From positions 1 to 63,973 of the IMG/VR virus record IMGVR_UViG_3300008114_000027: DNA of 63,973 bases; one strand, given 5' to 3'. Of this stretch, positions 1-63,214 are shown one piece after another (the first letter of the stretch is position 1; every line of letters begins with the position of its first letter). The notes beneath the pieces were generated by a model. It was not told the DNA's origin. It saw only the letters and a list, made by a program, of their open reading frames with translations, and ran no database searches. Source of the stretch: a virus (taxonomy: Duplodnaviria; Caudoviricetes). The position numbers and the translations under genes are program-made.

Positions 1-320
1 GGTCAACTTGGTGCCTTGTGGACTCACCCCGCACCGCCCATTATCTTCCGCTCTCGCGTCCCGAAACGCGCGCGTCCATGGTGTGCGTGTGCGTGTGTGT
101 GGTGACCTTCGAGCGCCCCTGTTTCGCTCCTGATTGCCTCGTATATTTTTCACGGGTACCCGACCTGACTGTATGTTTTTTCGGCGTATCCTTCGCTCTG
201 AACGTATAGTGTTTGCAAGGGTTTGGTGTATTTTACCGCTCTGCAGCCCGCGTCAACACTCGGAAAATAAAAAAAGTACCCGCATAAATTAAGGGTTTCA
301 GAGTTTTTATGTAAAATTTA

Positions 321-353
321 TTTGGAAATTGAAAATAGTTGATAGCATATTTG
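321..353 (+). promoter_or_regulatory. Probable early promoter, Bacteroidota sigma-A type
   Basis: TTTG at 321-324, 21-nt spacer, CATATTTG at 346-353 (one mismatch to TAnnTTTG). AT-rich upstream; precedes the whole + strand gene run. Confidence 0.55.
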
Positions 354-529
354 CACCGTCAAACAACGACAACGTGCTTTTACCCTCTCACGGTTAATCA
401 AGAGGGTCAGCCCTGAGGCAACAAGGGGACGGGAGGCAGCCCGATAATACAGTCAACATGCTGTAGCAATTTAATTAGCTAAACTGCCCTGAGCCGCACA
501 AATAGTGCGGGAGCCGAGACAAGCGAATA

Positions 530-591
530 GGCTAGCTGCACAGGGCAGCGCGCAACGGCGTAAGGTGGTTCGACTCCACCGCTAGCTACTA
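530..591 (+). ncRNA. tRNA-like element (acceptor stem plus T-arm, no normal D or anticodon arm)
   Basis: GGCTAGC (530-536) pairs with GCTAGCT (581-587). T-arm GGTGG-TTCGACT-CCACC (564-580). 3' end reads A-CTA. Only 62 nt. Confidence 0.6.
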
Positions 592-607
592 ACCAAATTT
601 CAATACC

Positions 608-967
608 ATGTACAAGATTGCATTTCACCTAGCGCGCGGCGCTAACTTTCAAAAGTTTCAAATTCGTGACGCTAACAACGAAGCGACCTATATTGAGCCT
701 AACGACTTCGACATTATCCTGCACAACTGCAAACTCAAAAATCAGAAGGGCGCGTCACTGCGTATATTCAAGGGCGGCGACAAGGCACGCTGCGCGTGGA
801 TAGAGTTCGAGCGCTACGAGGTCGTAGCTAAGGGTAACTACACGTCCGAGGTCGACGTGCGCTTCAATCCTAGGGTATCACCTACGTGGAACGTCGGCGG
901 CGTCGACAATCAGGACGACAGAACATTCGCTCAACTGCGTACCAACGGCCGCAAGGTCTACAAGTAA
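608..967 (+). CDS. Hypothetical early protein (119 aa)
   Basis: ATG after AT-rich leader; first ORF of the co-oriented run. Confidence 0.8.
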   Translation: MYKIAFHLARGANFQKFQIRDANNEATYIEPNDFDIILHNCKLKNQKGASLRIFKGGDKARCAWIEFERYEVVAKGNYTSEVDVRFNPRVSPTWNVGGVDNQDDRTFAQLRTNGRKVYK

Positions 968-973
968 AAACAC

Positions 974-1013
974 AGCCCCGCCACGAGAGTGAGCGGGGCT
1001 TTGGCAGTATAAC
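974..1013 (+). repeat. Intergenic bulged-hairpin motif, copy 1
   Basis: AGCCCCGC-CAC-gaga-GTG-a-GCGGGGCT-TTGGCAGTATAAC. Confidence 0.85.
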
Positions 1014-1033
1014 TAAATCAATTTTTTTTTATT

Positions 1034-1396
1034 ATGAAAGTAGAGTTAAACATTGGGCTTGGCAACAATCCCTTCGACGCGTCAGGCGCGGCAATGCTAG
1101 CAGCTAACGTGCTAACTAAAAACGGTGCAACAGAACTTGTGTTCCGCACCTCACAGGGCACCTACGAAGAGCAGGCGGAGCCCAACGTCATCATGAAGTT
1201 TGAATGGGACGTCGAGGGCGCCAAAGCGTTCCACGCCATGTCATTTCAGGACCTGCTCGAGGCGCTCGCAGTCATCATGACTCAAGAGTGTATCGCCTTC
1301 TACGTGCAGGAGTGGAGCGACGGCGGGCTAACGTACCGCACAGGTTGGGACGGCGACCGTCTAGACTTCTCGCTCGAGTACTTCGAGCGCTTCTAA
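1034..1396 (+). CDS. Hypothetical early protein (120 aa)
   Basis: ORF bounded by two hairpin motifs. Confidence 0.8.
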   Translation: MKVELNIGLGNNPFDASGAAMLAANVLTKNGATELVFRTSQGTYEEQAEPNVIMKFEWDVEGAKAFHAMSFQDLLEALAVIMTQECIAFYVQEWSDGGLTYRTGWDGDRLDFSLEYFERF

Positions 1397-1401
1397 TCTA
1401 C

Positions 1402-1443
1402 AGCCCCGCCACTAGCAAGTGTGCGGGGCTTTCTAGGTGTAAC
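1402..1443 (+). repeat. Intergenic bulged-hairpin motif, copy 2
   Basis: AGCCCCGC-CACT-agca-AGTG-t-GCGGGGCT-TTCTAGGTGTAAC. Confidence 0.85.
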
Positions 1444-1461
1444 CAATTAAATAATTTTATC

Positions 1462-1752
1462 ATGAGCAACATGCTATCAATTCACGACGAACTAAACAAC
1501 TTCGTTGACTACTACAACTCAGATGACGAACTGCGCTTTAAAATGCGCTCAGCCGTTATCGACTACCTCCAAGAGGTGCGCGAAGAGCCGCCCACGGTTA
1601 TATTCACGAAGATTTCGTACAAGGGCGACGACGTGTACGAGAAACACTTTGTGGGCAGCCTTGACCCGTGCAAAGAAAAGTTCCTGCTCACTGACCTGTC
1701 GGCCATGGTGCACAAGTACCAAGCGCTAGGCTGCGTGGTAGTCATCCGTTAA
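1462..1752 (+). CDS. Hypothetical early protein (96 aa, MSNMLSIH...)
   Basis: Start moved to ATG 1462, which follows the repeated leader TAACCAATTAAATAATTTTATC. Confidence 0.8.
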   Translation: MSNMLSIHDELNNFVDYYNSDDELRFKMRSAVIDYLQEVREEPPTVIFTKISYKGDDVYEKHFVGSLDPCKEKFLLTDLSAMVHKYQALGCVVVIR

Positions 1753-1758
1753 TTAACA

Positions 1759-1800
1759 AGCCCCGCCGCTCACCGCGTGCGGGGTTTTGTCAGTAGAAAC
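1759..1800 (+). repeat. Intergenic bulged-hairpin motif, copy 3
   Basis: AGCCCCGC-CGC-tcacc-GCG-t-GCGGGGTT-TTGTCAGTAGAAAC. Confidence 0.85.
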
Positions 1801-1814
1801 AAATACAAATCACA

Positions 1815-1949
1815 ATGAAGTTTACACTCCTTATCGCTTCACTAGCATGCATGGTGACAAGCGCAATCATCGCTGACCTTTTCCTCTTCGGGATATCCGT
1901 AGTGTCAGTGTTCAGTTCAATCCTATTAACCTTTCAAAAATCAAAGTGA
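1815..1949 (+). CDS. Small hydrophobic membrane peptide (44 aa; not in ORF track)
   Basis: MKFTLLIASLACMVTSAIIADLFLFGISVVSVFSSILLTFQKSK; TGATG coupling to the next gene. Confidence 0.7.
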   Translation: MKFTLLIASLACMVTSAIIADLFLFGISVVSVFSSILLTFQKSK

Positions 1950-2245
1950 TGAAAAATCCATTGGAAAAGTACGCGCGACTTGACAGCGCAACAGGCAAGG
2001 GTATGAACGAGGGCTTCTGCGTCAACGACGGCGAGGCTTACTTTGCCGAGCGCGAAGACCTTATCGCTTACCTGAGAGCGCGCAATGTCGACGAGTACAA
2101 CATACTCTCGGACGACTTCATACTCGACGAGGCTTACGAACTCGAAGACTACTACTACACCGAATGGGAGGTCGAAGATGAGGACACCTACTACATTGAG
2201 GTCAACGGCGAGTGGCTAGAGGTCATCAACGCAAAGGTTAACTGA
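1949..2245 (+). CDS. Acidic hypothetical early protein (98 aa)
   Basis: Very D/E-rich C-terminal half; its stop TGA lies inside the CTGATGA core of hammerhead 1. Confidence 0.8.
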   Translation: MKNPLEKYARLDSATGKGMNEGFCVNDGEAYFAEREDLIAYLRARNVDEYNILSDDFILDEAYELEDYYYTEWEVEDEDTYYIEVNGEWLEVINAKVN

Positions 2246-2285
2246 TGAGGCTTGAGTAGCCGAAACGCCGCGAGGCGTCTTAACC
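2236..2285 (+). ncRNA. Hammerhead ribozyme, type I, copy 1
   Basis: GGTTAA-CTGATGA-GGCT-tgagt-AGCC-GAAA-CGCC-gcga-GGCG-TC-TTAACC. Complete core; predicted cut after C2279. Confidence 0.95.
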
Positions 2286-2302
2286 AATCAATAAATTTTA
2301 TC

Positions 2303-2773
2303 ATGAAAGCAAACGCAACACGCATGACTGCTGAGGCAGTTAAACAACACAGCAAACGTGGGTACAATCCTCCACTATGGGAAGAGACAGTTGACCGCTA
2401 CCTGAAGTATGACAAGGTCGAGTTCTACCTGCTAGACCGCGACAAGCACAAGTCATACGATGAGTTCTTTGTCATCTACACCTTGCCTAGCGGCTTGAGG
2501 CTCATGGGCAGCCTTTCCTACAGTTCATCACTGACAAGCGCAGGCTTTTACGAGCTAAACTTGTTAGACCACGACATGGACGCGCTTATCGAGGATGTGC
2601 TAGCAGGCAAGCCCGTAGACATGAAGGACTACCTGTTCGACACTGACAGGGTGCTGCTGCAATCCCGCACAGACGTGACCTATAAAACGACGCCCGAGGC
2701 GCGTGACTACATGACTGAAGGCAGCACTAGGTTCGGCTTCATATTCACCAAGCAATACATTCACACAGCCTAG
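2303..2773 (+). CDS. Hypothetical early protein (156 aa)
   Basis: Start moved to ATG 2303 after the ribozyme and conserved leader. Confidence 0.8.
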   Translation: MKANATRMTAEAVKQHSKRGYNPPLWEETVDRYLKYDKVEFYLLDRDKHKSYDEFFVIYTLPSGLRLMGSLSYSSSLTSAGFYELNLLDHDMDALIEDVLAGKPVDMKDYLFDTDRVLLQSRTDVTYKTTPEARDYMTEGSTRFGFIFTKQYIHTA

Positions 2774-2780
2774 TACAACA

Positions 2781-2820
2781 AGCCCCGCCGCGTAAAGCGT
2801 GCGGGGATTTGTGGGTACAA
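2781..2820 (+). repeat. Intergenic bulged-hairpin motif, copy 4
   Basis: AGCCCCGC-CGC-gtaaa-GCG-t-GCGGGGAT-TTGTGGGTACAA. Confidence 0.85.
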
Positions 2821-2831
2821 ATCAAAATACA

Positions 2832-3017
2832 ATGACAAAAATCATCATGCTCTTTTGCCTGTTCACCGGAAAGGTTCAGCAGGTCGACAACCTCTACACC
2901 GTGCACGCCGGCACCGGCACCTACGAGTATGCCTGCGAGGGCGAGGTACTCCATTGGATAGAGACAGGGACATTCAACTACGACGACAGCCTGTGCGGCT
3001 GCGGCGAACTTAACTAA
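2832..3017 (+). CDS. Small hypothetical protein (61 aa)
   Basis: ATG 2832 after an A-rich leader. Confidence 0.7.
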   Translation: MTKIIMLFCLFTGKVQQVDNLYTVHAGTGTYEYACEGEVLHWIETGTFNYDDSLCGCGELN

Positions 3018-3037
3018 TCAAATCAAATCAAATCACC

Positions 3038-3166
3038 ATGAAAAAAGTAATCATTTTAGCAATCATCATCATCGCGCTCGCGTCATGCAGCACCAAGAAA
3101 CTTACACACTCACACTACACCAAGGGGGTAACGCACGGGCAGGACGGCTGCGCGTGGCACCGATAG
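3038..3166 (+). CDS. Small predicted lipoprotein (42 aa; not in ORF track)
   Basis: MKKVIILAIIIIALAS-CSTKK...: basic N-region, hydrophobic core, LAS-C lipobox. Confidence 0.75.
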   Translation: MKKVIILAIIIIALASCSTKKLTHSHYTKGVTHGQDGCAWHR

Positions 3167-3223
3167 GTTAACTGATGAGGTCTGAGTGACCGAAACCTAG
3201 GGCTCGCGCTCTAGGTCTTAACC
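3166..3223 (+). ncRNA. Hammerhead ribozyme, type I, copy 2
   Basis: GGTTAA-CTGATGA-GGTC-tgagt-GACC-GAAA-CCTAGGGC-tcgc-GCTCTAGG-TC-TTAACC; cut after C3217. Confidence 0.95.
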
Positions 3224-3240
3224 AAATAAATAATTTTATC

Positions 3241-3414
3241 ATGACAACTTACTTCATCTGCAACACAGACAGCTACGGGCAAAGAACAGGCACCTACCGC
3301 TCCATTCAAATAAGCGAAGCCGATATAGAAACTAATCACCATGGATGGAAATTCTACAACGGCATGTTTCTTTACGAGAGCGAGCACCAAGTCATACTAG
3401 CCTGCCAAGATTAA
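3241..3414 (+). CDS. Small hypothetical protein (57 aa; not in ORF track), flanked by two hammerheads
   Basis: MTTYFICNTDSYGQRTG...ILACQD; ATG after the conserved leader. Confidence 0.75.
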   Translation: MTTYFICNTDSYGQRTGTYRSIQISEADIETNHHGWKFYNGMFLYESEHQVILACQD

Positions 3415-3464
3415 GGTTAACTGATGAGTCCTGAATGGACGAAACGTCGTGAGACGTCTTAACC
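3415..3464 (+). ncRNA. Hammerhead ribozyme, type I, copy 3
   Basis: GGTTAA-CTGATGA-GTCC-tgaat-GGAC-GAAA-CGTC-gtga-GACG-TC-TTAACC; cut after C3458. Confidence 0.95.
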
Positions 3465-3481
3465 AATTAAATAATTTTATC

Positions 3482-3856
3482 ATGAGCAAAACAACGCGCG
3501 CTATCGGACAGCGCAATTCATTCACCAAGGCTTCAGAGCCTGCACCATTCAAAGTTAACCGCTTCGAGGTAGCTAGACTAGTCAAAGCACAAACCGACGC
3601 GATAACAAGCGGCGTATGGGACTACCCAATGGATTATAAATTCGCCAACAGCGGCGAGTTATGGGACGCAGTCAACGCAGGCAAGAGCGTGCAAAAGTTC
3701 GTGCGAGAGTGCATGATTGAGTTCGGCACGATTACAGGCGCCCTGCTAGGGAGTCAATTCAACCACGTGTCGCACAGCAGCAAGCACGCCATTCGCAAGG
3801 GCGTCATGAGAGCACAGCAGTACAAACAAATCATCGAACAATTAAAAACAAAGTAA
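3482..3856 (+). CDS. Hypothetical early protein (124 aa)
   Basis: Start moved to ATG 3482 after the conserved leader. Confidence 0.8.
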   Translation: MSKTTRAIGQRNSFTKASEPAPFKVNRFEVARLVKAQTDAITSGVWDYPMDYKFANSGELWDAVNAGKSVQKFVRECMIEFGTITGALLGSQFNHVSHSSKHAIRKGVMRAQQYKQIIEQLKTK

Positions 3857-3858
3857 CC

Positions 3859-4227
3859 ATGGGATTCTTCAGTTGGAAAACATCGGACACGGACAAGTCC
3901 ATCAGCAACGCATACAGCAAGAGAGGTGCGTTCAAAGTTTATATGATAACACCTACAGACAGGTACCTAGAACAGGAGTACGAGGGCTACGGGGTATTCG
4001 GTGGCAAGGACTACTACGAGCTAGTGTACGAGCTAAACAAGTGCAGGTACCATGGTCCTGAGGACGTGGAAGACAGGTCCAAGGGGATAAGGATAGCCTT
4101 CGAAAAAAACAACAAGGGCAATCTAGTCCTGCCAAAGTTTGCCGAGAGCGAAGACGCTTCGTGGTTGGAGCTACCTGATAGCAGGATATGCGAACAGCAA
4201 GGATACTTTTACCAATCAATAATATAA
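3859..4227 (+). CDS. Hypothetical phage protein (MGFFSW..., 122 aa)
   Basis: ORF tightly packed behind the previous gene. Confidence 0.8.
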   Translation: MGFFSWKTSDTDKSISNAYSKRGAFKVYMITPTDRYLEQEYEGYGVFGGKDYYELVYELNKCRYHGPEDVEDRSKGIRIAFEKNNKGNLVLPKFAESEDASWLELPDSRICEQQGYFYQSII

Positions 4228-4237
4228 AACAGGACCA

Positions 4238-4280
4238 AGCCCCGCCACTGCAAAGTGCGCGGGGATTTGGCGGTAGAAAC
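4238..4280 (+). repeat. Intergenic bulged-hairpin motif, copy 5
   Basis: AGCCCCGC-CACT-gcaa-AGTG-c-GCGGGGAT-TTGGCGGTAGAAAC. Confidence 0.85.
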
Positions 4281-4301
4281 AATTTAAAAAACAAATACAA
4301 T

Positions 4302-4676
4302 ATGGGACGTTCAGTATCAACACTACACGGCGCTAGATTATCATCGTATATCAGCGTCGACGACGAGGCTAACCACGAATGGATGGTCGAGGACCTGCAG
4401 GAGGTAGGTCAGGAGTTAAAACTAACTAGCTGCCAACGATGGGACGGGCGCGAGGTTCAAATTATCATGTCTGGACATGGCGTAGAGGTCGGTATCTCGG
4501 AGTACTGCGGGATAGTATCGATCGGGATACGAACCGAGGAGGAGTCTGATCCGATCGGCGACAAGTGGATAGACAAGAACGGGCAAGAGATTATCAAAGC
4601 CTTTCACCATCACGGCACGCCGATACGCAGCGTCGGAACATTCAGCAACGGGGAAACTATTTACGAAAAAAAATAA
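4302..4676 (+). CDS. Hypothetical early protein (124 aa, MGRSVST...)
   Basis: Start moved to ATG 4302 after the motif and A-rich leader. Confidence 0.8.
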   Translation: MGRSVSTLHGARLSSYISVDDEANHEWMVEDLQEVGQELKLTSCQRWDGREVQIIMSGHGVEVGISEYCGIVSIGIRTEEESDPIGDKWIDKNGQEIIKAFHHHGTPIRSVGTFSNGETIYEKK

Positions 4677-4683
4677 TAGCACA

Positions 4684-4851
4684 ATGAACATTAAAGTTTA
4701 TTTCGAGACGCAATCACCCGCATACGCGGAGCACGTCGCAACATTTCACGACAGCGGGACCTACACGGCTTGCTTTCCTGCACTAGACAAACTAAGAGAA
4801 GCGAACGGTTTTGATATCATCACCGAGAGCGTAGAGGAGGACGAGTCATGA
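4684..4851 (+). CDS. Small hypothetical protein (55 aa; not in ORF track)
   Basis: MNIKVYFETQSPAYAEHVATF...; ATGA overlap with the next ORF. Confidence 0.7.
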   Translation: MNIKVYFETQSPAYAEHVATFHDSGTYTACFPALDKLREANGFDIITESVEEDES

Positions 4852-5201
4852 GCGGAAGAAAGTTTTACAACAGCGGCAGGATTGCCAACGTGTTCAGTCA
4901 TCAGGACAGGCAGCGCCTGCTACACCACCACTCGATGGTCTACAAGATTTTTGTGGAGCTAAGCGAGGCGGGCTACTGGATGAAGCCGTCACTCATCGCT
5001 GAGTTTGAGGCGTGGAGCGACGAGGTCGAGATACGCATGGGCAAGAAGCCCGACAGCGACTACAGCTACAAGGTGCTAGAAAACTGCGCGGACTACGGCC
5101 CACTCACGCTGGCCGAGTACTTCGAAACCTGTGCAAGGCACACGCTTGCTTTGTGCGAGAGCCTTGGGGCGGAGTACAACGACCACCTGCCACGGATTTG
5201 A
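4848..5201 (+). CDS. Hypothetical protein (117 aa)
   Basis: ORF in the co-oriented run. Confidence 0.75.
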   Translation: MSGRKFYNSGRIANVFSHQDRQRLLHHHSMVYKIFVELSEAGYWMKPSLIAEFEAWSDEVEIRMGKKPDSDYSYKVLENCADYGPLTLAEYFETCARHTLALCESLGAEYNDHLPRI

Positions 5202-5222
5202 TATTAGTTTGGTTACACCATC

Positions 5223-5263
5223 GCCTCGCCATCCTTCGGGAGGCGGGGTTTTGGTGGTAGAAA
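5223..5263 (+). repeat. Intergenic bulged-hairpin motif, copy 6 (divergent)
   Basis: GCCTCGCC-a-TCC-ttcg-GGA-GGCGGGGT-TTTGGTGGTAGAAA; c(UUCG)g loop, same 3' tail. Confidence 0.75.
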
Positions 5264-5287
5264 GTCATAATAAAACATAAACACAAC

Positions 5288-5455
5288 ATGAAAGTAAGGA
5301 CACGCACTATTTTAGCGGCGACATTCACCGCTTACTGTATCGCCATGGCGGTTACAATGAATGAGGCACACGAGTACAGCAAGACCAAGCGGTGCTTGGA
5401 AGAGTACGGCGAGGGCGACGTAGGGATGTGCATGTGCTATGAAAACTGTAAATAA
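5288..5455 (+). CDS. Small Cys-rich protein with N-terminal hydrophobic segment (55 aa; not in ORF track)
   Basis: MKVRTRTILAATFTAYCIAMAV...CMCYENCK. Confidence 0.65.
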   Translation: MKVRTRTILAATFTAYCIAMAVTMNEAHEYSKTKRCLEEYGEGDVGMCMCYENCK

Positions 5456-5473
5456 TTTAAACCAAATAAAAAG

Positions 5474-5803
5474 ATGAAGAGATACTTCACATACCAAAAA
5501 CAGCGCATGATATTCGAGAGCGCCATGACCCACGTCATAATCGAGGAGACCACCAATCAGACTCAGTCACTGAAGCTAAGGAAGGGGGTGCACCTCTCGG
5601 ACTGGATGATGACCAAGGAAGAGGGCGAGGCGAGGCTCGAAGAGATTGCCAAGTACGAGTGCGACGGGGCCACCATAGAAGGCGGCGCCGTCTCCAACGA
5701 GGGCAGCAGGTACCAACTGCACAGCATAGAGAACCTGAGCGAGATTGAACTACTCAAGATGTCGCGCGTGCTACCACTAACATTCAAAGTATATCAACCA
5801 TAA
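5474..5803 (+). CDS. Hypothetical protein (109 aa)
   Basis: ORF with A-rich leader. Confidence 0.75.
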   Translation: MKRYFTYQKQRMIFESAMTHVIIEETTNQTQSLKLRKGVHLSDWMMTKEEGEARLEEIAKYECDGATIEGGAVSNEGSRYQLHSIENLSEIELLKMSRVLPLTFKVYQP

Positions 5804-5807
5804 AGCA

Positions 5808-6044
5808 ATGAACATGAAACTAAAAGGGTATCAGCCTATGGCCATGAAGATTGGCAACGGCGAGGTCGGGCTAGACGACAACGACTTCATCGAGTGGAGA
5901 AATTTCTACAGGAACAAACTGAGCGGGATGTTTGTCGACTTCATGGTCGACGAGTTAGAGGCGGCCATGGAGATGGGCGAGGACGGCTTCACGCTCATGA
6001 TATATAACCAATACAAGGGGCTACTCACCCCTGCACTAAACTAA
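5808..6044 (+). CDS. Hypothetical protein (78 aa)
   Basis: Packed ORF. Confidence 0.7.
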   Translation: MNMKLKGYQPMAMKIGNGEVGLDDNDFIEWRNFYRNKLSGMFVDFMVDELEAAMEMGEDGFTLMIYNQYKGLLTPALN

Positions 6045-6050
6045 CACAGC

Positions 6051-6230
6051 ATGCAACAGGTAATCTCAAAGCAGGGGACGTTCCGCAAGGATAACTCCAT
6101 CACCGTGTTCGAGGGAGACGTCACGGTGAAAAGCGACGACAGGTACACCACCATATCGGGCACGCACTACAGGCACAACTACGATTGGGGTAACCATTGG
6201 ACAGTAAACGGAGGCAGGGTATGGAAATAG
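6051..6230 (+). CDS. Small hypothetical protein (59 aa; not in ORF track)
   Basis: MQQVISKQGTFRK...GGRVWK fills the gap between neighbours. Confidence 0.6.
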   Translation: MQQVISKQGTFRKDNSITVFEGDVTVKSDDRYTTISGTHYRHNYDWGNHWTVNGGRVWK

Positions 6231-6397
6231 ACAACCTAATACTCATCACGTTCCTGTCCTATTGGGGCAGCCTAATCCTGTTGGCTAGTCAATGGTCAAG
6301 AAGGAAACCAATCACGAGGGTATCACTCATACTCCTATCAATCGCGCTCGCGTGGTTGACAGGGTACCTAGCATGGAGTTCGATATGCGCTGGATGA
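6221..6397 (+). CDS. Small two-TM membrane protein
   Basis: Two hydrophobic stretches separated by SRRKPITR. Confidence 0.6.
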   Translation: MEIDNLILITFLSYWGSLILLASQWSRRKPITRVSLILLSIALAWLTGYLAWSSICAG

Positions 6398-6549
6398 CAT
6401 GGACAATATCTATAGCCGTCTCAGTCAGCGTGCTGTGCTGGTACTATAGCAGGGGTGGGAGGGGAGTCTTCTACCTGATAGCGGGACTCATAATGCTCAG
6501 CATCGTGAGGCCGCACGTGAACAGGGCAACCGCACGCAAGGTGTGGTAG
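6373..6549 (+). CDS. Small two-TM membrane protein
   Basis: Two hydrophobic stretches and a basic tail; start taken at ATG 6373. Confidence 0.55.
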   Translation: MEFDMRWMTWTISIAVSVSVLCWYYSRGGRGVFYLIAGLIMLSIVRPHVNRATARKVW

Positions 6550-6747
6550 CTTATCTAGGCGCATAAACTAGCGCGTGATTGATAACATCTATAAGAATTT
6601 AGGTATCGATTGAAATTATTTATAAGACTTTCGATCCCTAGTTCGTATAAAAAATGTAACTTTCAGCACGCGTTAGTTAGCGCACACTAAACCGTTTAAG
6701 TATATAAATTTCAAGCAGTTAATAAAATTAAAAACAAAACAAAACAG

Positions 6748-7152
6748 ATGTACAAGATACCAACAACATGTCTCGGGTGGATAGACCTCCTGCCCGCAGA
6801 GGTAAGAGAGCAGGCCATAAAGAACGCCAGCCCGAGGTCATTACAGGACGACTGCAACAGCATGTACGACGCATTGGCAATCTCATTCGTGTGGAAGAAC
6901 ACGCCCGAGGGCGAGGAGTACTGGAAGGATATGGCTGACAGTCACACACCAAACTTCCTCTCGTTCATAGTGCAGTTCAGGGACTGTATCAACCTGTCGG
7001 AGGTGGCTAGGTTCGGCGGCATAAAGCGCCAGACATTGGAGGACGCGCTGAGGGATGAGGACAAGCACACACCTGCCATGAACCAGCGCATCATGACGAT
7101 GTTCACTCAAATGCAGAGGGCACTCAACGAGATAAACAGCGATGAGGAGTAG
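6748..7152 (+). CDS. Protein with C-terminal HTH-like segment
   Basis: INLSEVARFGGIKRQTLEDAL resembles an XRE-type HTH. Confidence 0.55.
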   Translation: MYKIPTTCLGWIDLLPAEVREQAIKNASPRSLQDDCNSMYDALAISFVWKNTPEGEEYWKDMADSHTPNFLSFIVQFRDCINLSEVARFGGIKRQTLEDALRDEDKHTPAMNQRIMTMFTQMQRALNEINSDEE

Positions 7153-7369
7153 AGAGTCAAGGGCGCTGTCGATAATCAAGTTCTTCATAGACAACCCGAT
7201 CCCGTACAAGAGGGCAGCGAAGGTATTCTACCCCTCGCGTGAGAGGGCGCTGCTGATGAGGGTCTTCAAGAACAGTAACGACTACGACGACGAGGACTTG
7301 AGGGTGTGGGAACTAATCATAAAACAGATAAAAGAGTATGACAAGAAGGTCAAGAAAGAGGCGGGCTAA
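7142..7369 (+). CDS. Hypothetical protein (75 aa)
   Basis: Overlap-coupled ORF. Confidence 0.65.
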   Translation: MRSRESRALSIIKFFIDNPIPYKRAAKVFYPSRERALLMRVFKNSNDYDDEDLRVWELIIKQIKEYDKKVKKEAG

Positions 7370-7766
7370 CGCGGGACGTTACCGCCTGCCAAAGGAGAAG
7401 AGGTCGAGAGGCCCATCCAAACTAGCCATGCTGAGGGAGGAGCAGAGGGTGACACTCACGGTCCGAATGGGCGACGCCAAGGTCGAGCAGAGACTGGTCA
7501 GGACTATAAAGCAGGTCCTCGACAGGCTGGACAACCCGACGTACAGGACACCGCTTAGGATGGCGGTATACTTCGACCACCTGTTCGTCACCATCGAGCC
7601 TAACCACATGAAGCGCAAGCGCAGGCTGATGAAGATGTTCAGGCTGAGGCCCACGGTGGAGGACATAAGGTGGGTCAACCTCATATGGAAAGAGCAGAGC
7701 GCCATGGCCGTGAGGTCGAGAAGGCTTGGCATAAGGACAGGTATAATAAACAAACAGATATCATAG
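7338..7766 (+). CDS. Very basic, Arg-rich hypothetical protein (142 aa)
   Basis: R/K-rich composition; possible nucleic-acid binder. Confidence 0.6.
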   Translation: MTRRSRKRRANAGRYRLPKEKRSRGPSKLAMLREEQRVTLTVRMGDAKVEQRLVRTIKQVLDRLDNPTYRTPLRMAVYFDHLFVTIEPNHMKRKRRLMKMFRLRPTVEDIRWVNLIWKEQSAMAVRSRRLGIRTGIINKQIS

Positions 7767-7767
7767 C

Positions 7768-8400
7768 ATGAATTTACTACAGAAACTACAGGCCATCCAG
7801 TCAAAGGTTAGGGCGGTGGCAAAGGACAACGACACGCAGAGTCGTTTCAACCCGAACGGATTTAAGTACGTGAGCGGGGACAAAATCATCGGCGTCATCC
7901 GCCCGCTGATGGACGAGTACAAGGTGATCCTGAAGAGCGAGGTGCTGGCGATAAACAATTCAGTCCAGCAGTACACCACGAGCAAGGGCGCGACAAAGAA
8001 CGAGGTTCTAACCAACATCTCGATGAAGATGACTTGGATAGACACCGAGTCAGGAGAGCGCGAGGAGTGCATGTGGGGTGCCAACGGGATGAACGACTGG
8101 GACAAGGGGTTCGGAAGCGCCGTGACCTACGGTATCAGGTACTTCATACTCAAGTCATTCCTAGTTAGCACGGACAGCGACGACGTGGACGCTATCGTTA
8201 GGGACTACGAGGATCAGGAACGCGCCCCGTCTAACGCAGCGCCAGCGCCAGAATCCGACAAGCCTTGGATTGAGGACAACGCAGAGGCCATGGCCAAGGT
8301 CGAGGGCTTCATGTCCAGCGGCGGATCAATCGACGACGTGTACAAGAAGTACCGAATGAAGAAGGTTACAAAGGAACGTCTAATTAAACTAAGCAAATAA
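7768..8400 (+). CDS. erf: ERF-family single-strand annealing protein
   Basis: N-terminal LLQKLQAIQ...FKYVS and the DKGFGSAVTYGIRYFILKSFLVSTDSDD signature. Confidence 0.85.
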   Translation: MNLLQKLQAIQSKVRAVAKDNDTQSRFNPNGFKYVSGDKIIGVIRPLMDEYKVILKSEVLAINNSVQQYTTSKGATKNEVLTNISMKMTWIDTESGEREECMWGANGMNDWDKGFGSAVTYGIRYFILKSFLVSTDSDDVDAIVRDYEDQERAPSNAAPAPESDKPWIEDNAEAMAKVEGFMSSGGSIDDVYKKYRMKKVTKERLIKLSK

Positions 8401-8870
8401 TGAATCAAGTACAGCTATTCAACCAAGACCTCATGAGCAGGGATGGTATCAAGAAACTATCGGACGCCATCGTGCAGTCACTAGAGGACGGAGACTTCAA
8501 CCCGCTAGACTTTAAGCTAGCGGCCAAGGGCTTCGAGAAACTGATGGAGGCCGTGAAGAAACCGATCGACAGGGCGGCGATGACCGAGGCGGAGAAGTAC
8601 TCGGCAAAGAACTTCACCTACAAGGGCGCCGACATACAGGTGGCGGAGAACCTAGGCGTGTCTTACGACTACAGCGGATGCAACCACCCCGAGTACGTCA
8701 GGGTACTCGAAGAGTTCAACGCCATAGCAAAGCGAAAGAAGGAGATAGAGGCGCAGCTACAGGCTACTAAGCATAGCTTCACCATGGTCGACGAGGAGAC
8801 GGGCGAGGTGGTGACGGTGTACCCTCCAGTTAAGTCCTCCACATCAGGGATCAAGATTACCATAAAATAA
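8400..8870 (+). CDS. Hypothetical protein coupled to ERF (156 aa)
   Basis: TAATG coupling with erf. Confidence 0.75.
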   Translation: MNQVQLFNQDLMSRDGIKKLSDAIVQSLEDGDFNPLDFKLAAKGFEKLMEAVKKPIDRAAMTEAEKYSAKNFTYKGADIQVAENLGVSYDYSGCNHPEYVRVLEEFNAIAKRKKEIEAQLQATKHSFTMVDEETGEVVTVYPPVKSSTSGIKITIK

Positions 8871-8877
8871 TAAGCAC

Positions 8878-9111
8878 ATGAAACTAATGAAGGGAAAGGT
8901 CATGATCAAGCCAGTGCTTGAGAAGGCCAGCGAGCTGATCGATATCGAGCAAAGGCGCGTAACCAAGGCGGTGATTGTACAGACAGGCGAGTGCGAGTAC
9001 GTCAGGTCAGGTATGACGGTACTCATCAAGCCTACAGGGCTGAAGATGTTCACGCAGAGCGAAGACCAGACGCTGATCGTGGACGAGGACAGCATACTCG
9101 CAGAGGTATGA
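8878..9111 (+). CDS. GroES-like co-chaperonin (divergent)
   Basis: KVMIKPV...AVIVQTG...VRSGMTVL...LIVDEDSILA pattern. Confidence 0.6.
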   Translation: MKLMKGKVMIKPVLEKASELIDIEQRRVTKAVIVQTGECEYVRSGMTVLIKPTGLKMFTQSEDQTLIVDEDSILAEV

Positions 9112-9422
9112 ACACCACACCGTGCAAGTTTTACAGGGCAGGATCTATAGCACGATCCGCCCTTGACTTTGTTGATGCCGAGATGGGGCAGCTGGTCCAT
9201 GTGTACCCTGCGGACAACAACGAAAATCTGGCGCTCATCATTGACGAAAGGGGCGACTTCATCACTACCTTTGTTAGCTTTGTTCGTGTCACAGACGTGG
9301 GCAGGGAGGACAGGATAGAGAGGATGATATCCGAGATACTCAAAGTGTCAAGGTCCTACGTCCCGTCGATGATCAGGGACCAGTACGAGAGGGATATTAT
9401 AAACATAAAAAGAAAGCCATGA
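9108..9422 (+). CDS. Hypothetical protein (104 aa)
   Basis: ATGA coupling at both ends; start moved to 9108. Confidence 0.7.
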   Translation: MNTTPCKFYRAGSIARSALDFVDAEMGQLVHVYPADNNENLALIIDERGDFITTFVSFVRVTDVGREDRIERMISEILKVSRSYVPSMIRDQYERDIINIKRKP

Positions 9423-9787
9423 AAAAGAAACTAATTATAGGCGGGGTGATTGTGCTGATAGTCACAGCCGTGATACTAATCATGAGGGACGACAAGCCTC
9501 AGCTATCGGCAACCGACCAGCTCATACAGGATGAGATCGACCACATCAAGGAGCGGGTCGAGATGAGGGACGCCGTGATCAACGAGCTGGTGATCGAGCT
9601 AAGGATGAGGGACTCACTCATAGCAAGCATACAGCAGGGGAAAACTTCTATAACCAACAAATACTATTACGATGAAAAATTTATTCTTAGTTCTAGCGAC
9701 AGCGCTAACCGTTCTCTTCGCGTCAACAACCAACGAATGTTTGTCTCAGACTTCTTCAGCGGCAGATACGCTCCCAAATCTAAGTGA
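9419..9787 (+). CDS. N-terminally anchored coiled-coil membrane protein (i-spanin-like)
   Basis: MKKK followed by a TM helix and a predicted coiled coil; overlaps the next gene by 116 nt. Confidence 0.5.
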   Translation: MKKKLIIGGVIVLIVTAVILIMRDDKPQLSATDQLIQDEIDHIKERVEMRDAVINELVIELRMRDSLIASIQQGKTSITNKYYYDEKFILSSSDSANRSLRVNNQRMFVSDFFSGRYAPKSK

Positions 9788-10112
9788 TGACCAAGTATTC
9801 AACCTGTGCTACAGCTCACTGAATTATTGGTGGGGATACTCTAACATTCAGGACGCGCTGCTCCAGCAGTACATACAGAAAGTAAAACTGTACGAGAAGA
9901 TGACAGGGGTACAGGCACAGAGCGTCGAGGATCTGGAGAGACTCTACCGTATACGTGAGGCGCAGATAGCAGAGAAGGACAGCAGGATAGACGAGCTGGA
10001 GGGTCAGTTAAAAAAAGCTAACAGGCGCAAGTCTACCATAAAAGTTGGTATGTTTGTCATCACACCAGCAGCCCTATTAGCGGGCGTTTATATAGGAACT
10101 AAATTAAAATAA
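9672..10112 (+). CDS. Signal peptide, coiled coil and C-terminal TM protein (spanin-like)
   Basis: MKNLFLVLATALTVLFA signal; C-terminal GMFVITPAALLAGVYIG. Confidence 0.5.
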   Translation: MKNLFLVLATALTVLFASTTNECLSQTSSAADTLPNLSDDQVFNLCYSSLNYWWGYSNIQDALLQQYIQKVKLYEKMTGVQAQSVEDLERLYRIREAQIAEKDSRIDELEGQLKKANRRKSTIKVGMFVITPAALLAGVYIGTKLK

Positions 10113-10117
10113 AAGTC

Positions 10118-10411
10118 ATGAACGTAGGACAAGAAGTTGTATGTATCAAGGACCACTCCCGAGGCATAGTCAGGGAGGGTGAGATGTACACCGTGCAGGA
10201 TGTCACGGAGACCCCATGCTGCCAGACAGTACTCATAGACATAGGCAAGAGACACGGCAGCAAGATCATCATGTGCACGTGCGGGAATAAGTTCCCCATC
10301 GACGTGCCGATTCATTACCTAGCCGCCTTCCTGTTTGCCCCTCTGGATGACCTGTTCAACACGGAGATCTCGGAGCTGATGTCCGAGGTTGAGACGACAA
10401 TAGAATTATAA
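10118..10411 (+). CDS. Small protein with possible Zn-binding Cys pairs
   Basis: PCCQ and MCTCG motifs. Confidence 0.65.
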   Translation: MNVGQEVVCIKDHSRGIVREGEMYTVQDVTETPCCQTVLIDIGKRHGSKIIMCTCGNKFPIDVPIHYLAAFLFAPLDDLFNTEISELMSEVETTIEL

Positions 10412-10429
10412 ACCAACACACACATAACA

Positions 10430-10654
10430 ATGATAAACATTGAGAGCAAACCAAAGAAGACGATCCAACACTTTGATGGATCGATCACACTAGACAAGAC
10501 CTACACGTACACCGTATCGAAGTGTATCAACGGCGAGGTCAAGTACATTGTAGAGATGCACGATGAACTACCCGAGGCACTAACTAGTGCAATCATTGGA
10601 GGTATCCTCAACTACTGCACGACCATAGGTATAGGTCAGGTTGAAAACAAATAA
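10430..10654 (+). CDS. Hypothetical protein (74 aa)
   Basis: Packed ORF with A-rich leader. Confidence 0.7.
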   Translation: MINIESKPKKTIQHFDGSITLDKTYTYTVSKCINGEVKYIVEMHDELPEALTSAIIGGILNYCTTIGIGQVENK

Positions 10655-10665
10655 TTTCACAAACG

Positions 10666-11112
10666 ATGAAACAGACAGAAGAAATTTCACAAACAATGCA
10701 ACAGACAGAAGAGAAGAAAGAGCTGACCCTAGAGGAAGCTAAGAAACAGATGGAACGTAACAAGATCGTGTCGTTCCTCATGTACACCATAGTGATGGGC
10801 TACCTAGCCGATGAGCTAGCTGGCAAGTACATAACCAAGGATGTGAAGATGACCTTCAACAGGTTCTTTGACACGTTCATGAAGCGCAACAAGCACAACC
10901 TAGACCAGCTGTTCAACATGTCGATAGACGAGATGCCCGACAGAGGGGCCGCGTTCTTGGAGACACAGCAGATGATCGAGATGCTGGCGGGAAGGGTTGC
11001 CATGCTGCCAGTCCACGCCTACCCAGACATCGTCATGATCATAGACGCCTATGTCGCGGGGCAGGTTATAAGAGAAGGTGATACAGACACAGAAGAGAAG
11101 CCATCCGAATAG
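10666..11112 (+). CDS. Hypothetical protein (148 aa)
   Basis: Last + strand ORF. Confidence 0.75.
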   Translation: MKQTEEISQTMQQTEEKKELTLEEAKKQMERNKIVSFLMYTIVMGYLADELAGKYITKDVKMTFNRFFDTFMKRNKHNLDQLFNMSIDEMPDRGAAFLETQQMIEMLAGRVAMLPVHAYPDIVMIIDAYVAGQVIREGDTDTEEKPSE

Positions 11113-11123
11113 GGTGGCTTTTA
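11098..11123 (+). terminator. Terminator hairpin at the convergence of the two gene blocks
   Basis: AAGCCATCC-gaata-GGGTGGCTT followed by TTA. Confidence 0.55.
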
Positions 11124-11714
11124 TCTTTCCGCTATAAACTCTCGCACCACATACGAGGTAGCAGTCTTGGGCTGCTCCACGTCTGGTGACTTCTTAACCT
11201 TAACAACCGATCGGCCACCTTCTGGACAGAAGTAGTCGGCCATCCTCTCCTTAGTAACCCTCCTGCCTTGGTTCCCCAAGTTTGTCTTGAAGGTCTCGTA
11301 GCCAGACATGTCCACGCCTAGCGCGTACATCCGCATCTCAACGTCGGCTACCGTGTTACCCATCTCGTTGATTATACTATACCTATTGACGCCGTCGTGG
11401 CTGGACACCGCAAGTTCTGGGGTGCTATCCTCCACGCTCACGTCCATGCTCACGCCGTACTGTTTAGCAGCAAACATGAGCGCCACAATCTCCGCGTGGA
11501 TCGTCGGCACCAGACCCTTCTGGTCCATGCCAGCGTACTGACCACGGAACACCGGGCTATACTGACCTGTTCGCTTGTCGTAAAGCCTTACGGCTACCTC
11601 AATAATTGAATTGTAGCTTGTCCTGTCTACGCGCTCTACTATATAGCCCGCTTCCGAGAACAGGCCGTGAACTTTTAGCAGGTAGGACTGCTCTGTCTTT
11701 AACGTTACATTCAT
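11121..11714 (-). CDS. Hypothetical protein (197 aa)
   Basis: Long ORF, last of the - strand block. Confidence 0.75.
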   Translation of the reverse strand: MNVTLKTEQSYLLKVHGLFSEAGYIVERVDRTSYNSIIEVAVRLYDKRTGQYSPVFRGQYAGMDQKGLVPTIHAEIVALMFAAKQYGVSMDVSVEDSTPELAVSSHDGVNRYSIINEMGNTVADVEMRMYALGVDMSGYETFKTNLGNQGRRVTKERMADYFCPEGGRSVVKVKKSPDVEQPKTATSYVVREFIAER

Positions 11715-20574: not shown

Positions 20575-23500
20575 TTAGAGTTCGCAATTTACTTTTAATT
20601 TTCCTTCCTTCACCATAGCCTTCTCAATTTTATCGAAGTTATCTATGATAAAGTCTAGGTCAGGGTTGGTCGCCGCGATCTGGTCGCGTAACCTGCCAGC
20701 CATGATCCTGTCGTCAACGCTCATGGCCGATGCCTGTGCCGCGTCAACGCCTGCTATCTGGGACGCAGACCTTCTAGACTGCTCCCTAACCTTAGCCTTG
20801 CTAACTGGCCTTGACTTTGCCAACTCCTTGGCGCGTTCCTTTGCCAGCCTCTTGCCAGCCTGTAGGTCGATAGCCCTGCCGGCAGCTAGTCCAGATGCCA
20901 TCGCGTTGATGAACTCGACCACATCCTTCTTCGTGGCGCGGTCGCTGAACACGTTCATGCCAGACACTGACCTGAACACGCTGTTCACTATGTCCTTGAA
21001 CTTGTCGACAAGGGTGGTTGGAAGTTCAAGCTCTTTATCCGTCACCGCAAGCTGGGCGGTAAGCTCTGTTATGAACTCCTCGGGAGACGATTCTTTGTTG
21101 TAGTTTTCTTCCGCCCACTTCTTCAACCGGTCGATAGTAGACCCCTCAAACATCTCAAGGACCTTGTCCCTAAACTTAGCATAAACCTCCGGGTCTTGAC
21201 CGAACACCTCGAGCAGGACGTTGTGCACGAACTCGTGCGGTGCTACGGCAGCGTCGGCGTTCTCCATGTTAATGTATATGCCGTACACGTTCCCGTCCTC
21301 GTCGTAAGCAAACGCCCCGCCCTCCTTTGGGTTAAAGTCTTCGTTTCTGCCCTGAGCAACTAACGCGTCGTGCATCTCCCTTGCTGTCTCGAATACAAAC
21401 ACCGGGGTGTCCTTGCCAAATGTTTTTCTGAACGCGCGTGCCGCCTTGTCTAGGTACTCAAGCACCGCCGCCTTCGGCTGTCCCTTGTACTTATCTTTAA
21501 GCTCAGTCTTGCGAGATGGTGTATACTCCCCCGGTTTAGTCGTCGCCGTCTCTGCTACGGGCTGCTGCTTTTCAGCTGCCTTTGGTATTGTAAACGCTTC
21601 AGTTGTAGCTATAGGTTTGATTACATCGCTATCACTAAAGTCCGGGTAAATGTTTTTAAAATTCTCCTTCGCCTGTTTTTCTAATATCTCTACGATATTA
21701 CTTGGAGTGTTTTCATTCAACTCATATGAAGCAAAGGAATAGTTGTCTCGGCCTGCCGTCTTATTCTTTCTTGATGTTGCTAATTTAAGGCCGACTACTA
21801 CATACTTTTTACCACCCTGTTTTACAACCGTGGCAAAGGATGCTTTCTTTTGAACGAGGGCCGCTACTTTTTTAGAAGATTTTGGATTGAACTCTGCGCC
21901 TTTAGACGCCTGCTCTATAGCCTCCTTCTCTTCACGGATCATGCCGACCGCCTCCTCTGGGGTGGCGCCCATCTGTACAAAGGCCGTCGCCGTGTCGAGG
22001 TCATCTCCCTCAAGCGTGTCGTCGAACTCTATCACAGACATCATGGCGTCGTCGTATGCCGCCGCGTTGTCCGTCTCCTCCTCTATTGTTATAGCAGGCG
22101 CGCCGTCGAAGTCTACTTCTTGCGTGCCTTGAACCACTCCACTTGGTGTAGTCGTCTCTGTGCCTGTTCCTTGGTCAGGTTGGTTTTGGACAGTGGTTTG
22201 TTGTCCTCCGACACCACCTGATACCCCTTGCTTGTTTTTCTGATCATCTGATTTTAGGTATGGTTGTTCTACATTAAACTCTTTACTTACCTCCTCGAAC
22301 ACGGTGTCGAACATAGCCTGAGGCGCAAGGCCTATGGTCTGCTCTGCTGCCTTGAGACCCACGTCGACGCTGAGGTCGTCGTCCATGATGGACAGGGTGT
22401 CGCCGTTCGGCAGCTTCATGTTAGCCACGTTGTTCTGGTCAGGCGCCCATGACGGGTTGCTCTCCGTGTTAACGAACTCGGCGTTAGAGTCGATGTCCTC
22501 CTGAGATCCTACAACGACAGCACCCTTGCGGCCTGCCCTGTTGTTGGTACCCTCAGGGACAAACACGTAGTTGCCCTCTGGTATGGTGTCGCCGACGTTG
22601 TCGACCATCTTACCATCGGACATCTTCATCGTGCCCTTCATGCCGTTGTACGCTACGGGTATTCCTTCGGCAGCTGCTGTTCTGACGGGGTTGGCTGCTC
22701 GTTCATTTGCTGCTCTAGCCTTCTCAATAGTTCCAGCTGCGCGGGCTTGGGTAGCTGTGCTACTTTTAGTCTTCGATCTATACTCATAGTTTTCTATTTT
22801 TTGAATCCTTTCTTCTATCACCCGAGACATGCTCAGCTTCTGTTGGTCTGTAAGATCCTCCCTCTTGTCGATGTCGTCCAGCAAGGTGTACAGGTTGTCC
22901 TCTGCGGTGGCGATGTCCTTGTCGTTGACAAACTCTTCGCCCTCCATCATCGTCTCCACCTTGCCTACTGTAGGGTACACGGTTGTTACCAAGCCTGACA
23001 TTACATCTGTCCCAACATCTGTAGGCTCTGGGGCTGGCTGAGCTGCCGTCTCTTTAATTATCTTGTCCTGCTCGTATATAGACATGATCTCTTTGTCGAT
23101 GCTTTCGATATCCTCCTTGTCTAATGGAAGCAGGCCAGTCTCTTTACGTGCGTCTACAATGCTATTCTTTAACTGAATAAGGTTGAACACCCTGTCCTTG
23201 TTATCTCCTGTAAGCTCTGCGTATGACGGTATATTGTTCAGCTCGTTGGCTAATTTTGTTAGCTCACCAAGGTCCTTCATCTCCTCTACCGTGGCACCAG
23301 AGTTTGCCCAAGCCACCTGAATATCGGCGCCGTTCTCCCCCATGTTTCTCAAGGTAGCCTGCTCCTGTGGTGTTCTGTACTTGGTACCAAACTTCATCAC
23401 GCCCAAGAACGCAGGAGGAAGTGATCCGGAAATTCCACTCTCAACAACAGCGCTCATGTTCCACCCCGCGTGAAGTACCTCCCTTCCAACAACACCGTTG

Positions 23501-38464: not shown

Positions 38465-38533
38465 CTCTGAACCAAATAACAAATCAATTAACAAATCAAT
38501 TAACAAACCACTTTAATAGAACCACAAATATAG

Positions 38534-48181: not shown

Positions 48182-48260
48182 GTATGTACTATTACGGCAA
48201 AATTACTATAAATTGGTATAAAGATACAAAATTAGTTAATTTTCTTAACGACAGCTAAAA

Positions 48261-61663: not shown

Positions 61664-61674
61664 TGTATTGTTTT

Positions 61675-63117: not shown

Positions 63118-63214
63118 TATTTATATATGTTCCACCGTGCATTATATGCACACTGCACCGTGCTGCTGTGACGCAAACATACAAACAAGATCGCAACCAC
63201 AAAACCAAAAATTG

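Follow-up and report, generated by a model that had tools for sequence, protein, structure and literature searches.

The window analyzed here, that is, the whole stretch of 63,973 bp, is the viral record IMGVR_UViG_3300008114_000027, which has a CheckV completeness of 97% and carries no end repeats. It encodes a portal protein, a large terminase, virion proteins, and a primase-helicase, and is probably the almost complete genome, about 64 kb in size, of a podophage. The plus-strand genes span from about 600 to 11,112, and the remaining genome is coded on the minus strand. In the first 5.3 kb, small plus-strand genes are separated by ten RNA elements, comprising three type I hammerhead ribozymes, six copies of a GC-rich hairpin followed by UUUGGYGGUAnAAAC, and one tRNA-like fold. 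The features of the operon are listed below with the basis of each assignment in brackets (ORF, open reading frame).

321-353, plus strand: candidate early promoter of host type (Bacteroidota-like), TTTG, 21 bases, cAtaTTTG (Bacteroidota consensus; block identical in the closest relative)
372-529, plus strand: structured leader RNA that precedes the tRNA-like domain and contains at least five hairpins (compensatory pairs in three genomes)
530-588, plus strand: tRNA-like element with a 7-bp acceptor stem, small hairpins, the T arm GGUGG-UUCGACU-CCACC, and discriminator A588, then the CUAACCAAA leader (fold)
608-967, plus strand: cassette gene A, 119 aa, without known family (ORF list; Pfam/PHROG search)
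974-1013, plus strand: hairpin module 1, stem GCCCCGC/GCGGGGC with one bulge, then UUUGGCAGUAUAAC (pattern; fold, z -4.89)
1034-1396, plus strand: cassette gene B, 120 aa (ORF list, relatives)
1402-1443, plus strand: hairpin module 2, then a hammerhead-type leader, TAACCAAUUAAAUAAUUUUAUC (pattern, fold)
1462-1752, plus strand: cassette gene C, 96 aa (sequence, relatives)
1759-1799, plus strand: hairpin module 3 (pattern, fold)
1815-2245, plus strand: cassette genes D (44 aa) and E (98 aa), the stop of E being a TGA of the hammerhead core (ORF list)
2236-2285, plus strand: hammerhead 1, type I, predicted cleavage at 2279/2280 (core pattern, fold)
2303-2773, plus strand: cassette gene F, 156 aa (ORF list)
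2781-2821, plus strand: hairpin module 4 (pattern, fold)
2832-3166, plus strand: cassette genes G (61 aa) and H (42 aa) (ORF list)
3166-3223, plus strand: hammerhead 2, with a long stem III, predicted cleavage at 3217/3218 (core pattern, fold)
3241-3414, plus strand: cassette gene I, 57 aa (ORF list, relatives)
3415-3464, plus strand: hammerhead 3, predicted cleavage at 3458/3459 (Hammerhead_1 score, core pattern, fold)
3482-4227, plus strand: cassette genes J (124 aa) and K (122 aa) (ORF list, relatives)
4238-4279, plus strand: hairpin module 5 (pattern, fold)
4302-5201, plus strand: cassette genes L, M, and N (ORF list, relatives)
5222-5263, plus strand: hairpin module 6, with a divergent stem and the 3' motif kept, UUUUGGUGGUAGAAAG; last element, with conserved collinear genes next (fold, loose scan)
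11100-11128, plus strand: ordinary intrinsic terminator at the end of the plus-strand operon, a GC stem then UUUUAUCUUU, unlike the hairpin modules (read from the sequence)

All ten elements were found where the first-pass annotation of this DNA had placed them, and none was found elsewhere in the 64 kb genome. As it had also claimed, nine of them lie between a stop codon and the next ATG; the stop codon of gene E (TGA, 2243-2245) is located within the core of hammerhead 1. The leader after hairpin 2 (1440-1469) and that after hammerhead 3 (3460-3489), reported as identical, agreed at all 30 bases, and the TAACCAA described after the tRNA-like element was present at 590. TAACCAA followed by an ATG 8-25 bases on occurred 11 times against 2.04 expected, a number reached by none of 100 shuffles, and 5 of the 11 occurrences were in element slots. 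The A-rich leaders, which lack a Shine-Dalgarno sequence, span 14-28 nt ahead of the next ATG (14-28 nt after the GUA of the hairpin motif, 23 nt after the hammerhead cleavage site, and 19 nt after the tRNA-like fold) and can be aligned with one another. Searches with 10 proteins of the early ORFs returned one Pfam match below the cut-off, one PHROG match of unknown function, and nothing more.

The hammerhead core pattern (CTGATGAG..CGAAAC) was detected three times in the whole window (2242, 3172, and 3421), always on the plus strand, against 0.01 expected, and 0 of 100 shuffles reached three. The core sequences CUGAUGAG and CGAAAC and the GUC cleavage triplet were complete in all three copies, stem I was GGUUAA/UUAACC in each, and the minimum-energy folds showed the canonical three-way junction in 3/3. 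The features of the type I hammerhead (RF00163) were thus present, namely the core with an NUH triplet, three helices, an open stem I, and covariation. Cleavage at the predicted sites would leave leaders of identical length, 23 nt, beginning with UUAACCAA. Stop codons in all three frames were located within the first 20 nt of each hammerhead (2236-2256, 3166-3186, and 3415-3435), with TAA in stem I, TGA TGA in the core, and TGA in loop II; therefore, any ORF recombined upstream would be terminated. In Rfam, hammerhead 3 scored 29.5 bits with Hammerhead_1 (cut-off 34) and hammerhead 2 scored 17.2 bits with HH9, both below threshold, and hammerhead 1 was unlisted. A BLAST search of cultured phages with hammerhead 3 gave seven weak partial matches.

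A pattern search of IMG/VR with this stem I matched at least 118 stretches, and 122 unique copies with intact helices were taken from the matches listed. The hammerhead subclass is widespread in uncultured phage contigs. Among these listed copies, stems II and III showed 4-6 pair types per position, and stem I varied between GGUUAA/UUAACC and GAUUAA/UUAAUC with pairing maintained. The flanks of stem I were near-invariant (A before and AA after), and loop II was mostly UNANU, the 113 copies with 5-nt loops starting most often with U-(G/A)-A. The cleavage site was 18-26 nt upstream of the first ATG in 95 of the 122. The catalytic core was intact in 122/122, the search pattern having selected for it; the conservation of the core and of part of stem I is not independent evidence, because the pattern fixed those positions. 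The core sequence and the covariation agree that the hammerheads are genuine, as the first reading had proposed, and self-cleavage by these predicted ribozymes, well supported by sequence, is the best-grounded step of the mechanism set out below.

The hairpin pattern (GCCCCGCC..GCGGGG) occurred five times (975, 1403, 1760, 2782, and 4239) against 0.00 expected, and a looser scan of both strands of the 64 kb added the divergent sixth hairpin (5223) alone. All six comprise a 7-bp GC stem, a one-base bulge, and a covarying upper stem of 3-4 bp (CAC/GUG, CGC/GCG, or CACU/AGUG), and the stem is followed by UUU(G/C)NNRGUAnAA. Searches seeded on the 3' motif led to 99 unique hairpin-plus-motif copies in the viral loci retrieved, in which the stems were quite different and the 3' motif was preserved. 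An ORF ended 0-40 nt upstream in 81 of the 99 copies, compared with 82 of 495 random positions, and an ATG-started ORF was found within 80 nt downstream in 83 copies, compared with 198 of 495. The hairpin motif is widespread in uncultured phage contigs and shares a strand with a hammerhead at 19 loci. The leaders following GUAn read AAAC(C)AA, which resembles the UUAACCAA after the ribozyme.

An extended lower stem, CCACC/GGUGG, was considered and rejected (35 of 104 paired, with a shuffled mean of 29.8 and a maximum of 36); therefore, GGYGGUA is regarded as a sequence motif. A scan of a genome collection with the 3' motif yielded 103 stretches, near the number estimated by chance, and the hairpin accompanied 11 of 104 matches there versus 33 of 111 in viral contigs. 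A BLAST search of cultured phages with a hairpin-motif copy gave zero matches. The generic hairpin pattern was discarded as a search handle, its matches being mostly unrelated and single.

The tRNA-like fold was found to be the 3' domain of a conserved and covarying leader RNA of about 230 nt. Both close relatives conserve the fold together with roughly 160 nt upstream, and of the 51 predicted pairs of the leader, 12 carry changes on both sides that still pair (three genomes); the region 372-529 had no match in Rfam. In the fold, the 7-bp acceptor stem directly abuts the 5-bp T arm with the loop UUCGACU, and 27 nt lie between acceptor stem and T arm. This agrees with tRNA-like processing elements of the mascRNA/t-element type, in which a 7-bp acceptor stacks onto a 5-bp T arm that has a UUCRANY loop. 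A true tRNA was rejected: ARAGORN reported 0 tRNA genes both in the window and in five related loci, and tRNA-Sec, the highest-scoring Rfam model, reached 14.8 bits against a cut-off of 47. The first-pass annotation had counted the fold as a third kind of interchangeable slot element, which is not sustained, since it is the 3' end of a larger RNA and occupies the first slot only in 3/3 genomes. About 75 nt of the 5' part of the leader, present in the relatives L242 and L245, are missing from the window at 372; the missing stretch is bordered by similar short repeats (CAAACAACGACAA / GAAGCAAGACAA) and looks like a direct-repeat deletion.

A second, unrelated tRNA-like element of 51 nt was present in three other hammerhead-bearing loci (L011:rc 702-752, L012:12404-12454, and L053:rc 6291-6341). 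It closes a conserved non-coding stretch with two GTATGCGGT repeats, and a short leader comes next. In L011 and L012, a small ORF running into a hammerhead follows, and in L053 no hammerhead was found within 1.5 kb of the element. The best Rfam match was the mascRNA model, below threshold (19.6 bits vs 42.5, E 0.32). The layout of structured RNA, tRNA-like fold, and short leader therefore recurs in another lineage.

Comparison was made with the close relatives L090/L242/L244 and L079/L048/L245 and the fragment L045. Two scans of metagenome contigs added no relatives, scans of viral contigs with single proteins returned only the two already known, and no near match was found among cultured phage records. 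The region 4847-9550 was 95.9% identical to and collinear with the closest relative, and 1-4850 was mosaic. Downstream of about 4.85 kb, the three close relatives are collinear; in the first 5 kb they differ in gene content and order. The element type before the orthologues B, G, and I differed between genomes, so that the swapping of element types in front of orthologous genes, which the earlier annotation had anticipated, was observed. It also differed before D (the 44-aa copy in L242/L244 was assigned at 86% identity and is elsewhere labelled other44) and before a 90-aa ORF, whose two copies are putative homologues. The element type after a gene was constant for A, C, E (3/3), H (4/4), I (3/3), and N, and differed only after B (1 of 6 orthologue families). 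The modules therefore travel with the upstream gene and not with the downstream one. One hairpin-plus-leader unit (CGCAGTATAAAACAATTAATTT..) stands ahead of B in one relative and ahead of I in another.

The breakpoints were also mapped relative to the elements. Synteny with the relatives breaks at 2267, inside hammerhead 1 at the end of the core. Five joints in contigs of related strains from four public runs were all located at elements. The tRNA-like leader was joined to gene F (596 to 2294/2298), the end of gene F to hairpin 1 (2772 to 972), the end of gene B to hammerhead 3 (1396 to 3416), and hammerhead 3 to gene G (3466 to 2832); in the fifth (3160/3164 to 3412/3414), the cassette at the H-I boundary was deleted.

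The host is likely a member of the Bacteroidota, because the terminase matches only phages of Flavobacteriia-class hosts, apart from one unclassified record, and Shine-Dalgarno-like motifs are rare. The terminase gave 87 matching records with a best identity of 25.9%, from Flavobacterium, Cellulophaga, Tenacibaculum, and Maribacter phages and the unclassified record, and Shine-Dalgarno-like motifs preceded 1 of 29 plus-strand and 2 of 47 minus-strand ORFs. The candidate promoter at 321-353 was judged against TTTG..TAnnTTTG, which we take to be the Bacteroidota -33/-7 consensus. Exact matches to this pattern numbered 3 in the window against 1.12 expected, a count that is not significant; all were on the minus strand and none was in a slot. 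These matches (38525-38556, 48198-48230, and 63174-63203) lie on the strand that is coding there. The one at 38525-38556 overlaps the start of the ORF 38534-39592, and the other two are 17 and 41 bp, respectively, from ORFs running away from them.

No RNA polymerase was recognized, and the DFDxD motif was absent from the 8 large ORFs checked; a crAss-type virion RNA polymerase was rejected on this ground, the 1917-aa ORF having no family match. This ORF (20575-26328, minus strand) had neither a Pfam/PHROG match nor DFDxD, and several other large ORFs of the virion region were likewise unmatched. A PAPS-reductase-like protein (60782-61687, minus strand; phrog_424, E 3e-51) is of a kind often linked to phage DNA modification. 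The longest gap in the plus-strand operon, 198 nt (6550-6747), contains an inverted repeat at about 6662-6691 and AT-rich tracts, and may be a boundary between early and middle transcription. A 30-nt unit is duplicated in tandem with 93% identity at 10653-10712, across the start of the ORF at 10666 (repeat family D14). A simple tract rich in GT/GC, gtgtgcgtgtgcgtgtgtgtg, occupies 78-100, close to the left end of the record and within a region 80% identical to the closest relative.

We consider it probable, jointly with the podophage assignment, that the locus is an array of early cassettes, that its polycistronic RNA undergoes cutting or insulation at every boundary, and that its repeats serve as exchange patches. 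The early plus-strand operon would start from one host-type promoter, and its first product would be the conserved structured leader RNA, with the reduced tRNA-like domain as its last part. Small cassettes of unknown function, each holding 1-3 ORFs and closed at the 3' end by either a hammerhead or a hairpin module, would follow as an array. The hammerhead would cut itself during transcription; the upstream message would be capped by the ribozyme helices with a cyclic phosphate end, and the downstream message would carry a 5'-OH and the 23-nt leader UUAACCAAU.... The hairpin module would work post-transcriptionally: it would block 3' exonucleases, and a host endonuclease would cut the conserved single-stranded tract. 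RNase P, perhaps together with a 3' tRNA-processing enzyme, would cut at the tRNA-like domain, so that leader RNA and first message come apart. The near identity of the repeated modules and leaders may let them act as short homology patches at which cassettes are swapped, lost, and gained.

The hairpins might instead be attenuating intrinsic terminators, like the terminator half of the PeSL repeats of T4-type phages, producing a falling expression gradient with the hammerheads alone processing the RNA. The GC-rich stem of 8-11 bp, the 3-4 U behind it, the placement 7-21 nt past stop codons, and the linkage of the elements to the upstream gene are consistent with this, and the stem-loops of T4-type PeSLs are described, in passages of that work, as effective terminators in hyperplastic regions. 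However, in a simple test requiring at least 5 T in the 8 bases after the GC stem, hairpins 1-5 failed, having 3-4 U and then GG, and only part of hairpin 6 was listed, on the plus strand. Moreover, the real end of the operon carries a different, long-U terminator, and a host-type promoter motif follows none of the hairpins. With six terminators in a row, little transcription would reach the conserved genes from 5288 onward, and termination alone leaves the conservation of GGYGGUAnAAAC across many phages unexplained. Attenuation is thus regarded as unlikely; on the last two grounds, a stabilizer-plus-cleavage site is favored over an attenuating terminator.

That the repeats matter mainly as DNA is very unlikely; they would then be patches for recombination, or selfish passengers spreading along with cassettes, that contribute little to expression, and the hammerheads might be weak or inactive. 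The mosaicism of the cassettes, with breaks at and inside the repeats, and the CGCAGTATAAAACAATTAATTT.. unit found before different genes would fit such a view. Yet the core is intact in all listed copies (selected by the pattern), the helices covary, the distance to the ATG is strict, and the hairpin stems covary while staying paired, which together argue for selection at the RNA level. We hold it highly unlikely that the hairpin with GGYGGTAnAAAC is a promoter, of host or phage specificity and possibly hairpin-dependent as in N4, that sets the 5' end at a fixed distance from the ATG. Such a promoter would account for the similar lengths and the alignment of the leaders after GUA, the hammerhead cut, and the tRNA-like fold, and what is conserved in the 3' motif is indeed its sequence and not a helix. 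The Bacteroidota -33/-7 consensus, however, is not matched and is absent from the slots, so that the hairpin was rejected as a host promoter; no phage polymerase was recognized, the first slot has a different promoter, and each element lies shortly after the stop codon of the upstream gene, with which it travels.

Several observations weigh against an RNA-processing cassette array. None of the ten elements reaches an Rfam gathering score. Stem I of the hammerheads is short and open, and a tertiary contact is predicted from the conserved flanking A residues and the UNANU loop. The strong stem and 3-4 U of the hairpins make transcription termination possible, and the candidate promoter at 321-353 departs from the Bacteroidota consensus by one mismatch. 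Only three related genomes and one fragment were found, and the contigs of the four public runs, three of which are probably DNA, show joints and not RNA ends. Breaks also occur at element-free junctions (3016, 3861 to 4228, and 4678 to 4847). The first-pass proposal that gene gain and loss break at the elements therefore holds for the breakpoints, those of reordering included, at or inside them but not for these junctions, and the repeats would help exchange without being required for it.

The array can be compared with several known systems. In phage T7, RNase III cuts the early polycistronic RNA at conserved stem-loops between the genes, and these stem-loops then cap the 3' ends of the upstream RNAs. 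One early polycistronic RNA with intergenic stem-loops is likewise predicted here; unlike the RNase III sites of T7, the hairpins have only about 10-16 bp with one or two bulges. Processing at tRNA-like structures has precedents in mitochondrial tRNA punctuation, plant mitochondrial t-elements, and MALAT1-mascRNA. As in those cases, an acceptor and T-arm fold lies at a transcript boundary and could be cut by tRNA-processing enzymes, but the present element belongs to a phage, is used once at the head of the operon, and is fused to a larger conserved structured RNA.

Clusters of hammerheads flanking variable prophage genes were described in 2011, in passages that propose mRNA processing and report the cleavage of tandem arrangements and of approximately 2-kb transcripts in vitro (PMC3088659). 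Hammerhead cutting of phage polycistronic RNA is therefore not new. The present locus resembles those clusters in having several hammerheads between small variable phage genes on one strand (Perreault 2011, PMC3088659). It differs in that the hammerheads belong to one type I subclass (stem I of A-GGUUAA / UUAACC-AA, loop II of UNANU, and an ATG 18-26 nt away), alternate with hairpins that are not ribozymes, and sit behind a tRNA-like leader; such alternation is unmentioned in the main-text passages of that work (PMC3088659), and its supplementary lists may already contain this hammerhead subclass.

The PeSL of T4-type phages is described, in passages of two reports, as a sigma70-type promoter with a terminator stem-loop (PMC2839356, PMC4122927). 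Both systems have short intergenic repeats that crowd hyperplastic ORFan regions and bound indels and replacements between close relatives (PMC2839356, PMC4122927). The hypervariable ORFan location, the breakpoints at repeats, and a stem-loop were found here, and a host primary-sigma promoter was not. Unlike in the PeSL, the slots carry no promoter motif, and ribozymes form one of the two repeat types; the units are therefore considered to act at the RNA level.

A further proposal is that the hairpin with UUUGGYGGUAnAAAC is an undescribed, widespread phage RNA signal, equivalent to the ribozyme and read by a dedicated nuclease, for which host Cas13b is a candidate. The 3' flank of the hairpin resembled the 3' half of a Cas13b-linked repeat in a gapped test (z 4.05; 1 of 200 shuffles reached the score). 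The likeness was absent from the other five repeat/orientation combinations (|z| below 1.3), and an ungapped profile of the flank gave only negative scores with CRISPR repeats. The repeat in question comes from a Bacteroidota genome (G326; L474 and L480) in which a type VI-B array of 36-nt repeats and 30-nt spacers adjoins a 1130-aa Cas13b (NF038190, 746 bits); in the cas13b orientation, the repeat ends in GGGTATAAACAAC. Mimicry of a type VI-B repeat, as a 36-nt unit with paired GUUG/CAAC ends and a U-rich loop, was rejected, GUUG being absent upstream of all six hairpins. Cas13b also processes "long" repeats containing an insert. Solitary repeat units were found for all CRISPR types except type VI, according to passages of PMC10651486. 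The hairpins are like these units in being short repeat-like RNAs in phage intergenic DNA (PMC10651486), but the likeness of the 3' flank to type VI-B is weak and the GUUG/CAAC ends are missing. We rate this proposal as highly unlikely. If it were true, the phage would borrow the processing of CRISPR RNA for cutting its own early RNA, or would decoy Cas13b, and this would be the first repeat mimic for type VI.

Four features appear to be new: a ribozyme and a non-ribozyme motif alternate at equivalent boundaries, each module is linked to the upstream gene, the distance to the start codons is fixed, and the leader RNA has a tRNA-like end. None of these was described in the literature searched, which did not extend to supplements and some subscription papers, and among the papers listed for hammerheads in Flavobacterium or Cellulophaga phages, none mentioned hammerheads. 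The hairpin motif was not found in the RAGATH literature, of which the 2015 paper lay outside the search, and it is hence not claimed to be unpublished.

The early region of this phage would provide a natural and testable case of RNA punctuation built from interchangeable parts, namely a ribozyme, a hairpin motif, and a tRNA-like fold, in hosts that make no use of Shine-Dalgarno sequences. In such hosts, a defined, short, and unstructured 5' leader may matter for translation. Synthetic operons use ribozymes or nucleases as "insulators", and the phage arrangement would be their natural counterpart. The hairpin motif and the leader RNA are candidates for new RNA families, and the two motifs can serve as search handles for hypervariable early cassettes, likely for host takeover or anti-defence, in uncultured Bacteroidota phages.

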